From Longimicrobiales bacterium (GTDB lineage Bacteria > Gemmatimonadota > Gemmatimonadetes > Longimicrobiales > Gaopeijiaceae): a DNA stretch of 64,000 nucleotides. Of this stretch, positions 9,803 through 12,569 are shown piece after piece. Within the stretch, counting starts at the first letter, position 1. Each line of letters starts with the position of its first letter. The stretch covers positions 1,280,001 to 1,344,000 of the forward strand of contig CBDFIQ010000002.1 in the NCBI GenBank assembly GCA_965248195.1, given 5' to 3'. The position numbers were made by a program, and so were the translations under genes. The notes beneath the pieces were generated by a model, which made no database searches, had not been told where the DNA came from, and saw only the letters and a program-made list of their open reading frames with translations.

Positions 9803-10232
9803 ATGGCCTCGAAGGATTCTGACGACCGGACCGATTCGAGAGGGGGTCGTGGCCCCTCGCCTCCCGATCGCTCTCCCGCAGATCTAGCTGCGTCCAACAA
9901 GGAGGGTGCTCCGGGTCATCCCGAATCTAGCGATCCGTCGGGGAGCCCCTCCTCTGATCAACTCTCGTACACTCCGAAGCAGATCGGTCCCTATTTGCTA
10001 CGTGAAACGCTCGGCAAGGGTGGGATGGGGGTGGTGTACGGGGCGGAGCAGACCGAGCCCGTCCGTCGGGAAGTCGCCCTTAAAGTCATCAAGCTCGGCA
10101 TGGACACCAAAGAGGTCGTGGCCCGCTTCGAGGCCGAGCGGCAGGCCCTGGCGGTCATGGAGCACCCCTCCATCGCCAAAGTCTTCGATGCTGGGGTTAC
10201 CGACACGGGCCAGCCCTACTTCGTCATGGAGC
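9803..10232 (+). pseudogene. Hanks-type Ser/Thr protein kinase, truncated by IS256
   Basis: [38 protein letters not shown] and PYFVME, then an abrupt switch to the IS end; HRD and DFG subdomains are absent. Confidence 0.9.
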
Positions 10233-11608
10233 GGTCAAGTCCCGATTTGTGTGTAAAAGCGGAGGAAGCTCCTCGCCTTCGGCTAGGCTGCTTGGGCGAC
10301 CTCCTGTTTCTGGAGGAGTGAGAGGTCGAGGTAACGCCGGTCGCCCCAGACGTGTGTGGTCCTGAGTGCGACGGCCGTGATGAGCCTGAGGGCGCTGGCC
10401 CGGTCCGGGAAGGCGCCGGCGGCCTTGATCCTGCGTTTGATCTCGCCGTGCAGCCGCTCGAGGCTGTTGGTGGTACGCAGCCGGGGCCAGTGCGCCTCGG
10501 GGAACGCGTAGAACTGCGTCGCTGCCCCGAAGCCCCGCTCCAGGACCTCCACGGCCTCGGGCAGCTCCTTCTTCCAGCGTGCGCCGAACTCGCCCAGGAG
10601 CTTCTTCGCCTCGGCGAGTCCGGATGTCTGGAAGATCACCGAGACCTCACGCGCCACGCGCTTGCGTAGGCGGTGGGGGACCCTCGCCCCCACATTACGC
10701 TGCAGATGGACCGTACACCTCTGACGGCGTGCCTCGGGCAGGAAGCGGCGGACCGCAGCTGCCAGGCCTGCGTGCTCATCGGCGATCACGAGCTCGACAC
10801 CGCCGAGGCCGCGGTCCTGGAGTTGCTCGAGGAGCTCCGACCAGCTCTGCTGCGACTCCTCAGCGCCCAGCGTGACGGCCAGGAGCCGTCGGTGACCCTC
10901 AGGGCCCACTGCATACGCCACGAGCGCACTCACGTTCTCGACTTTGCGGGCCCAGCGGGCGTCCAAGAACGTGGCGTCCAGGTACAGATAGGGGTGAGGC
11001 CCCTCGATCGGCGCACGGCGCAGCCCTTCCACGGCCTCGTCGAGCCGTTTTGCCACACGACTCACCGTCGAGCGCCCAACACGCTCGCCCATCAGCGCCT
11101 CGGTGACGTCGCCCATCTTGCGCTGTGACACGCCGCTCACATACGCCTCGACCATCATCTCGTCGAGCTCGGGGCTCCTGCGCTGGTAGCGGCCGATCAC
11201 GTCGGCCGGCGAACCGTTGTCCCGGCTCCGGGGCATGGCGACCTCGATCTGCCCCAGGCTCGTCAGCAGCCGCCTCAGGTATGTGCCGTTCCTATGGTCC
11301 TTCCGGCTTCCCACCCGCTCGAAGCGGCGTGCACCTACCATGGCCTTCAGCTCCTCTTCCAGCACCATCTCGAGCGTCAGCCGGATCGCGCCTTGAAACA
11401 GCTCGCGCAAATCATCGCGTAGCTCGTCTTGCGTGGCCCGACCGATCTCCACAATCTCTTGCATCGGAAGCTCCTCTCCGGTTCCGAGCCTGCTCTGCAG
11501 ACCCGGACTCCCGGGTTCATGTGACAGTGAACAACAACAGAGGAGCTTCCGTTTTTCTTTCCCTCCTGTCCAGCTTATCCGCTTTTACACAAATCTAGGG
11601 ACACTACC
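10233..11608 (-). mobile_element. IS256-family insertion sequence (~1376 bp)
   Basis: Imperfect terminal IRs GGTCAAGTCCCGATTTGTGTGTAAAAGCGGA / GGTAGTGTCCCTAGATTTGTGTAAAAGCGGA flank the transposase; no target duplication. Confidence 0.9.
10283..11464 (-). CDS. IS256-family (mutator-type) transposase
   Basis: [25 protein letters not shown] and [16 protein letters not shown] motifs. Confidence 0.95.
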
Positions 11609-11646
11609 ATCACTAGAGGGAAGCGGGACGGAGGGGCCAGAACTGA

Positions 11647-12027: not shown

Positions 12028-12049
12028 GTGTTACCCGGAGTGTTACCCG
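12028..12049 (+). repeat. Tandem GTGTTACCCG x2, probable integrase arm-type sites
   Basis: Exact 10-bp repeat at 12028 and 12040, about 115 bp before a tRNA 3' fragment. Confidence 0.5.
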
Positions 12050-12164: not shown

Positions 12165-12378
12165 GTCTTGAAAACTGGCGGGCGTAAGCCCACGCGGGTT
12201 CGAGCCGAGCGGTCAGAATCGCTTACCGCGTTAGCGGGCGAGGGGGTTTCCCGCGAGCCGACCGAGGATCGCCGCGAAGCGCCAACCGGAGCTCAGCCGA
12301 GGAGCGGCACATCCTCGAAGAGCTTCAGGTGGACCGACGAGCCCACCGACCGGAGGGAGGTGAATCCCGCCCCCTCTG
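12165..12378 (+). pseudogene. 3' half of tRNA-Ser(UGA) (att-site relic) with a 160-bp insertion in the T-loop
   Basis: GTCTTGAAAACTGG (anticodon loop and 3' stem), variable arm GGGCGTAAGCCC, then GCGGGTTCGA [12204-12363] ATCCCGC-CCCCTCTG; no D-arm or 5' acceptor strand upstream. Confidence 0.75.
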
Positions 12379-12569
12379 TCTAGCCCATCGCCAAGCCGGC
12401 CCGTGGGAGGGCAAGCGAGCTGGTGAAGCTGGCCGAGGAGTTGGAGGAGTCGTAACCTTCCGCGGTACCCAGAAAATAGAGAGAGGCTCAGGGGAGCCGA
12501 TGAAGCTGGCCGAGGAATTGCAGGGGTAGTGGAGGGGCTTGGAAGGCGCCAACAACCAGGAGGGGGCTA

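Follow-up and report, generated by a model that had tools for sequence, protein, structure and literature searches.

The window analysed here, a 64,000-nt stretch of a Longimicrobiales genome (hereafter G000), contains a fragment of a tRNA-Ser(UGA) gene whose T-loop is interrupted by 160 nt of noncoding sequence, and the question it raises is what this insert is and how it came to lie there. A first-pass annotation of the same DNA had read it as a small non-autonomous element, either REP/MITE-like or an intron-like RNA, that targets the conserved GTTCGA/ATC motif and might represent an undescribed system.

When positions 12204-12363 are excised in silico, the flanks rejoin as ...GCGGGTTCGA followed directly by ATCCCGCCCCCTCTG. 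The 39 nt 5' of the insert are identical at 38/39 positions to the intact tRNA-Ser(UGA) gene (G000:C2:c2033825-2033909) and the 13 nt 3' of it match that gene exactly (14/15 over 15 nt), so the annotated precise insertion in the T-loop stands. The insert carries no transposase, and the ends typical of the units described below (GCCGA... and ...TCA) are not complementary, which agrees with the reported lack of terminal inverted repeats. Its description as a single 160-nt element has to be revised, as it is really two tandem units of 92 and 68 nt (12204-12295 and 12296-12363), each opening with GCCGAG. The features of the locus are as follows:

10251-11620, minus strand: IS256-family element (context; Transposase_mut, E=6e-100).
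12029-12049, plus strand: tandem TGTTACCCG repeat, with exactly two occurrences in the genome; likely an integrase arm site, to judge from its setting.
12165-12203, plus strand: piece of tRNA-Ser(UGA) that begins with the anticodon stem-loop and reaches into the T-loop as far as A58 (38/39 identical to the intact gene).
12204-12295, plus strand: unit 1, 92 nt, likely a chimera of two units (68.2 bits with covariance model R1, of whose training set it is a member).
12204-12212/12251-12259 (P1, with tandem G·A), 12226-12237 (P2) and 12260-12294 (P3), plus strand: helices of unit 1, from covariation.
12296-12363, plus strand: unit 2, 68 nt, a short subtype (R1 41.6 bits; also a training-set member).
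12364-12378, plus strand: 3' piece of tRNA-Ser(UGA), from A59 to the acceptor strand (first 13 nt as in the intact gene).

Tyrosine-integrase islands that enter tRNA anticodon loops leave attR fragments (Williams-type classes), and the host fragment is the attR-type half of such an island. It is a displaced tRNA 3' half; the other occurrence of the tandem TGTTACCCG repeat is found 66 nt below the intact gene, where an ORF of 390 aa, integrase-like by its motifs, has its 3' end; and in a relative (G005) the genes to the right of the fragment adjoin the downstream side of tRNA-Ser(UGA) in the same sense. An island attR accounts for the host fragment (12165-12378) and the arm repeat, but not for the insert. 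The intact gene lies 740 kb away in the opposite sense, which means that a later rearrangement or a misassembly is needed. The IS256-family element is present in about 100 copies of 99.5-100% identity in this 4.9-Mb genome, with one beside each tRNA-Ser half, and this very recent expansion is a likely driver of rearrangement. Separately, we observed that the start of a Ser/Thr kinase gene is truncated at the end of the IS256 copy (window 9803-10321), and that a short repeat (GAAGCTGGCCGAGGA...) occurs twice at window 12387-12560 and also in other parts of the genome; this window region has deep coverage, with many variants, among the contigs of other studies.

The insert is not a chance sequence, since related units lie at the same junction behind tRNA-Cys and tmRNA in G000. 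A covariance model (R1), with 32 units in its training alignment, gives 13 matches in this genome, two of them training sequences, and matches in 9/11 genomes of the same genus, 14/24 of the family and 0/15 of two sister families. A profile HMM recovers 11 units in G000 at E≤0.0011 and the second window unit at E=0.029, while the best score on the reversed genome is 12.4 bits (E=0.83). On a sample of the phylum R1 finds 11/151 genomes at E≤0.01, an under-count since 29 candidates were scored per genome, with strong matches confined to G000 and one family member. A stringent sequence pattern run on species genomes returned at least 116 stretches, and 73/79 among the matches listed carry Gemmatimonadota titles, many of them Longimicrobiales. 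Viral contigs gave 0 units with the strict pattern; with a looser one, the 80 loci screened included four marginal HMM matches (12-15 bits), none of them unit-like. Five units are scattered on C1 of this genome (G000:C1:120824, 158569, 205155, 462303 and 1066587), of which four share a similar subtype, with tRNA-Pro-like 3' flanks; these are possibly the ends of islands once stacked at tRNA-Pro(GGG).

Comparison with Rfam, one of the checks that the first-pass annotation proposed, returned nothing over the insert or the unit at gathering score or E≤2. A weak match to sX4 (RF02223) was set aside because it covers the tRNA-Ser body and not the unit. The sX4 consensus itself resembles a whole tRNA-Ser followed by an antisense-3'-end stretch, so sX4 is possibly no independent sRNA but a tRNA together with the beginning of a tRNA-linked repeat.

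The units are 68-96 nt long, begin with GCCGA after a preceding A, and end in NTCA, NTGA or CTCC, with A or C as the last base. The GA dinucleotide noted at both junctions of the window insert turns out to be incidental and no trait of the family: ends are TCA in 52/64 units and TGA in 12/64, GA is repeated at the junctions in those 12/64 only, and the two junctions have at most one A in common. A covarying structure is present, made up of two or three hairpins per unit and including tandem G·A pairs. In the R1 alignment 88.3% of the cells are paired and 11/21 pairs change on both sides; 0/500 shuffles match this pairing and slid controls pair 27-41%, a shuffle count that overstates significance because the structure was drawn from the same, related sequences. 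The end helix varies, with G-C/C-G in 6/32 rows and C-G/G-C/T-A in 13/32, two Watson-Crick pairs of P1 are swapped for GA·GA in 6/31 units, and a C(GNA)G triloop closes the 3' hairpin in 54/64 units with all four N present. Single-sequence folding is not exceptional (z of −0.4 to −1.9 as RNA and −0.8 to +0.4 as DNA), so the evidence for structure is the covariation and not the folding energies.

Hyperstable GNA mini-hairpins are a trait of DNA, while tandem G·A pairs are common in RNA too, which counts against a DNA reading. Together, the tandem G·A pairs and C(GNA)G triloops lead us to infer a fold in single-stranded DNA, and the register of the stem excludes a UNCG tetraloop on the opposite strand. 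Of the hairpins listed at first pass, CCGC-GTTA-GCGG lies within the covarying fold and three others fall outside the supported structure: CGAGGAT...ATCCTCG would pair across the two units, GAAG-AG-CTTC needs a 2-nt loop, and GGTGG...CCACC cuts the conserved CGAG core. In unit 2, P1 contains G[GA]G/C[GA]C and P3 has a C(GGA)G triloop; G011 and G003 carry this subtype in the corresponding tandem place. A pair that is Watson-Crick in 30/31 units is replaced by a C·C mismatch in unit 1.

Recurrence at the same T-loop junction, which the first-pass annotation proposed to check, is seen in many tRNAs: all four tRNA-Ser, three tRNA-Pro, tRNA-Cys, tRNA-Arg(CCG), tRNA-Val(UAC) and tmRNA. The proposed GTTCGA/ATC target holds as the main site; the full target is wider and can be written (T/C)(G/C)A^A(T/C), with the caret at the junction, which covers T-loops whose position 59 is A or C, the tRNA-Pro(GGG) anticodon arm, the 3' end of the module itself and two non-tRNA sites. 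With a pattern free of flanks, 113 distinct units at 111 metagenome loci have the 5' flanks GGTTCGA (63), CACCTGA (15) and AGGTTCA (4), the remainder being 13 units without the start motif, 7 at a contig edge and 11 with other flanks. Of 83 genome units, whose 3' flank was free, 59 are followed by ATCC, 6 by CTCC and 7 by a further unit; neither GTCC nor TTCC was found behind any of these 83, though G59 or T59 is present in 39/57 tRNA calls of G000. A tally of position 59 (A 180, C 9) is constrained by the regular expression behind it, and we draw nothing from it.

Units of the CACCTGA class follow nucleotide 31 and precede nucleotide 32 in 5'-half copies of tRNA-Pro(GGG), with the intact gene downstream of 12/15 such anticodon-arm units. 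More generally, 44/83 genome units lie within 400 nt behind an intact gene, on the tRNA strand, and the 3' flank is a tRNA or tmRNA end over at least 10 nt (one mismatch allowed) in 64/76 units; these copies of the tRNA end are mostly 14-17 nt long because the genes rarely encode CCA. Tandems occur in several genomes, where the unit end NTCA^AT resembles the target. Both recurring non-tRNA sites read TCGA^A. The first is GACTGATCGA^A, with a partial duplicate upstream (G000:C2:601550-601850, minus strand; also L440, L443, L507 and L516), and the second is GCTCGA^ATGGCCGAGA... (G000:C2:2289650-2289900, minus strand; also L227, L431 and L520), the 3' side of which has a unit-free copy at C2:693534.

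Copies in whole genes bear on the question of mobility. We excised 189 distinct T-loop insertions in silico and obtained six ARAGORN calls spanning the junction, of which four are genuine full-length genes and two are spurious. Two of the genuine ones, both tRNA-Pro(CGG), belong to an accessory tRNA array that G246 carries (L178) and form perfect cloverleaves when rejoined; a third unit in the array interrupts a tRNA-Asn, whose rejoining was assessed by eye. All three lack a duplicate and a leader, and intact Pro(CGG) and Asn genes are present at other places in the host genome. The array (L178:1821-3730) is a dense run of at least 17 divergent tRNA genes, three of them interrupted by the module, and likely stems from a phage or an integrative element. 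In the other two genuine copies the acceptor end is damaged, and an intact gene follows directly downstream. ARAGORN with relaxed settings gave spanning calls in 8/76 cases after excision; the two at L178 are genuine at default settings and six were not reproduced. A unit in a sole-copy tRNA was not seen, as each full-length interrupted gene has an intact counterpart in the same genome. The module can thus stand alone in a whole gene, and is seen only in spare genes.

The anatomy of the family recalls the tRNA-linked repeats (TLRs) of E. coli, of which, according to the portion of PMC8144298 available to us (which cites Egan and Landy 1978 and Rudd 1999), 22 are known in K-12, with no known function. 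The tyrT repeat runs from the tRNA end through a spacer, an antisense 3' end and GGTTCGA to a 67-nt module and the last 19 nt of the tRNA. Its module has four GNA mini-hairpins and opens with CTC-GA-GC...GC-GA-GAG, the same stem of 3 bp plus tandem G·A as P1 of the Gemmatimonadota unit. Of 17 matches to RF00391 in K-12, four were mis-parsed, with the next intact tRNA-Lys taken, and were dropped; the 13 parsed units end in an 18-19-nt tRNA copy from position 58/59, and the T-loop 5' junction is present in 10/13, of which 7 were recognized by script and 3 by eye. E. coli thus shares the GGTTCGA junction, then a C(GNA)G mini-hairpin module (65-73 nt there), then tRNA positions 59-76, and TTCGAAT is the T-loop sequence in all five of its target types.

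The window copy has the tRNA-end copy of a TLR (13 nt exact, 14/15), the junction and the module, but no leader, whereas the family shows junction, GNA module and leader; and where 44/83 units adjoin the repeated gene downstream, the window copy is 740 kb off in an attR half. Gathering score for RtT (RF00391) is 45 bits, and the best match in G000, away from any unit, reaches 24.6 bits; conversely, R1 on the tyrT region gives a best E of 0.1, no significant cross-match. With this anatomy and no cross-match between models, the family fits the definition of the TLR class, but not RtT, and the suggestion of an undescribed system in the full sense falls away, the architecture being that of E. coli repeats known since 1978. 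The differences lie elsewhere: TLRs are described in the available part of PMC8144298 by their 18-19-bp 3' repeat, which copies the end of a tRNA or rRNA gene, and not as a T-loop-inserted module, while the Gemmatimonadota module also occurs unduplicated in full-length genes, in the tRNA-Pro anticodon arm, in tandems and at non-tRNA sites. In the literature searched, which was mostly outside subscription journals, we found no paper describing a T-loop-inserted module.

The other known classes are more distant. With no terminal inverted repeats and no target duplication the insert is not a MITE. REP/RAYT and IS200/IS605-type elements include small non-autonomous hairpins of fixed orientation that insert at short motifs without target duplication. 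The gene-less module shares these traits, but shows no GTAG/CGTC-type tag and has a copy number of about 13, not hundreds; those elements also have a cognate Y1 HUH transposase that the repeat usually flanks, and PF01797 is absent from G000.

The linked HUH, GIY-YIG or recombinase gene that the first-pass annotation advised looking for was not found beside the units. Clustering of ORFs at about 100 genome loci and the 111 metagenome loci gave no recurring neighbour other than syntenic housekeeping genes and shadow frames. A motif screen of 1295 ORFs around the 111 metagenome loci returned 0 GIY-YIG-like and 0 HxxRH matches, with two HUH-like and two YADD matches. The Y1/HUH transposase (PF01797) has 0 matches in G000, is present in 2/36 family genomes, and none recurs beside units.

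As for the age of the copies, 20 hand-picked units have a pairwise likeness of 0.80 for the same target in different genomes (22 pairs), compared with 0.70 for different targets in one genome (26 pairs) and 0.71 for different targets in different genomes (142 pairs). Since units are more alike by locus than by genome, there has been no recent burst and most insertions are probably old. The unit behind tRNA-Ser(UGA) in G011 and on contigs of three other studies is preceded by a hairpin leader with an antisense T-arm. Up to 12275 these contigs show no letter that differs from unit 1, and beyond it they diverge, one contig of another study spans the whole tandem with 11 differences, and the second half of unit 1 plus unit 2 is 88% identical to a separate tandem in G011. 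The divergence after 12275, the G011 match and the C·C mismatch make unit 1 a likely recombinant. A contig joint skipping the insert was not seen among the matching contigs, which can show presence but not absence. The leader could have been lost by deletion between T-stem copies in a dead fragment, so the window copy alone is no proof of direct insertion, and the G246 array is the better evidence for it. Also in G011, an element of about 1.9 kb with a 500-aa ORF (L044:7450-9340) separates tmRNA from the associated repeat unit and is placed right behind the terminator; its ends are presumably group II intron-like.

Taken together, we think it somewhat probable (roughly 0.55) that the insert is two tandem copies of a gene-less module that is likely non-autonomous, folds as single-stranded DNA and is inserted in trans; on our analysis, this module is the core of the Gemmatimonadota tRNA-linked repeat. 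The small non-autonomous structured element of the first-pass annotation is retained here, as the unit both recurs at the T-loop junction and covaries. Mobility is argued for by the clean insertions in the G246 genes, the anticodon-arm units, the tandems and the TLR-like junctions. An enzyme acting in trans would nick the exposed target strand, and the module would be copied or joined in. Insertion would destroy the tRNA, and copies would persist in redundant genes, in displaced fragments or beside a duplicated intact gene, where a local duplication that leaves an intact gene next door would produce the classical tRNA-linked repeat. Most copies would then be old and inherited with their locus. 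The window copy would descend from the unit that sits behind tRNA-Ser(UGA): an integrase island entering the anticodon loop would have taken it along with the attR half, and the copy would have lost its leader and recombined with a second, tandem unit.

The most serious competitor, which we nevertheless regard as unlikely, is that the module belongs to the host as an RNA element of the tRNA transcript, set free in processing as a trailer or small RNA like those proposed for E. coli RtT and RrB, and that it spread from one tRNA operon to another by recombination at the tRNA ends they share, without being mobile itself. The many units directly behind intact genes on the tRNA strand (the 44/83 above) and the clustering of copies by locus speak for it, strong covariation implies selection, and the E. 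coli units are, in the part of PMC8144298 available, transcribed and processed, with the 18-19-nt repeat proposed as an RNase E site and the rRNA-linked ones being processed RNAs that bind CsrA. It leaves unexplained the clean insertions in full-length genes, the units in 5'-half copies upstream of tRNA-Pro, the unit-on-unit tandems and the non-tRNA sites, and the loops are GNA triloops, not GNRA or UNCG tetraloops.

We hold it less probable still that a cassette with a small ssDNA nuclease of GIY-YIG (Ssn-like) type used the module as its recognition hairpin and that its gene was lost from the clade, leaving the units as fossils; this would be a specific form of the mobile-module explanation. 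According to PMC11893778, the hairpin repeat to which an Ssn nuclease binds lies a few nt downstream of the place where the enzyme cuts ssDNA, and P2 (CCGC-N4-GCGG) is loosely like the core of their NTS (NTS/SRM), likewise an ssDNA hairpin repeat. Yet the 1295 ORFs hold 0 GIY-YIG motifs and no ssn-like gene is linked; small GIY-YIG ORFs in relatives do not track the module, being found mainly in a genus without R1 matches (5/5 genomes); the sole one in G000 is frameshifted, with no unit nearby; and tRNA has 0 occurrences in PMC11893778.

That the module is the att-site arm of tRNA-targeting tyrosine-integrase islands seems improbable. Several copies, the window's included, do sit in attR/attP-type fragments, and the targeted tRNAs are island hotspots. 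Against this, the island crossover lies in the anticodon region and the arm repeat about 115 nt upstream of the fragment, the module is found in many unrelated tRNAs and in an array without att context, and the neighbouring ORFs have 0 HxxRH motifs. A short tRNA intron removed at the RNA level, the intron-like RNA of the first-pass annotation, is very improbable despite the exact T-loop position and the two array tRNA-Pro genes that rejoin in silico, because only 4/189 excisions rebuild a genuine full-length gene (two of those with damaged acceptor ends), all four and the interrupted tRNA-Asn have intact counterparts, most copies lie in fragments and the window host is itself a half gene, Rfam detects no group I core, and the units follow A and end in A or C where group I introns have U before the 5' splice site and a terminal G.

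The duplicated tRNA end looks like a by-product of survival and the module like the agent, since the module also occurs alone, in tandem, at two tRNA sites and in whole genes. According to PMC8144298, no function or origin has been assigned to the E. coli TLRs since 1978; the present family contributes insertions that stand alone, another tRNA site besides the T-loop, tandems, and a match to those TLRs at the level of the junctions. Such inserts hide or mis-call tRNA genes and att sites, which calls for care in annotation. We offer as a speculation, rather doubtful at present, that TLRs across bacteria are footprints of undescribed minimal ssDNA transposons, in which a tandem-G·A/GNA-hairpin module of about 70-95 nt would be moved by an enzyme, base-precise at YGA^AT in tRNA-gene hairpins, and insertion could trigger the local duplication that rescues the gene. 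In copies with a leader, its antisense T-arm stretch might bridge the two tRNA pieces around the two hairpins, forming a four-way junction where strands are cut and joined; such a leader reaches across the junction on both sides in just 8/47 units, and it matches the unit's own 3' fragment at a score of at least 10 in 7/47, compared with 1.5% for other targets. The ends of the module and the target junction provide defined substrates with which to search for that enzyme, and the whole could be a compact, site-specific system of ssDNA insertion.
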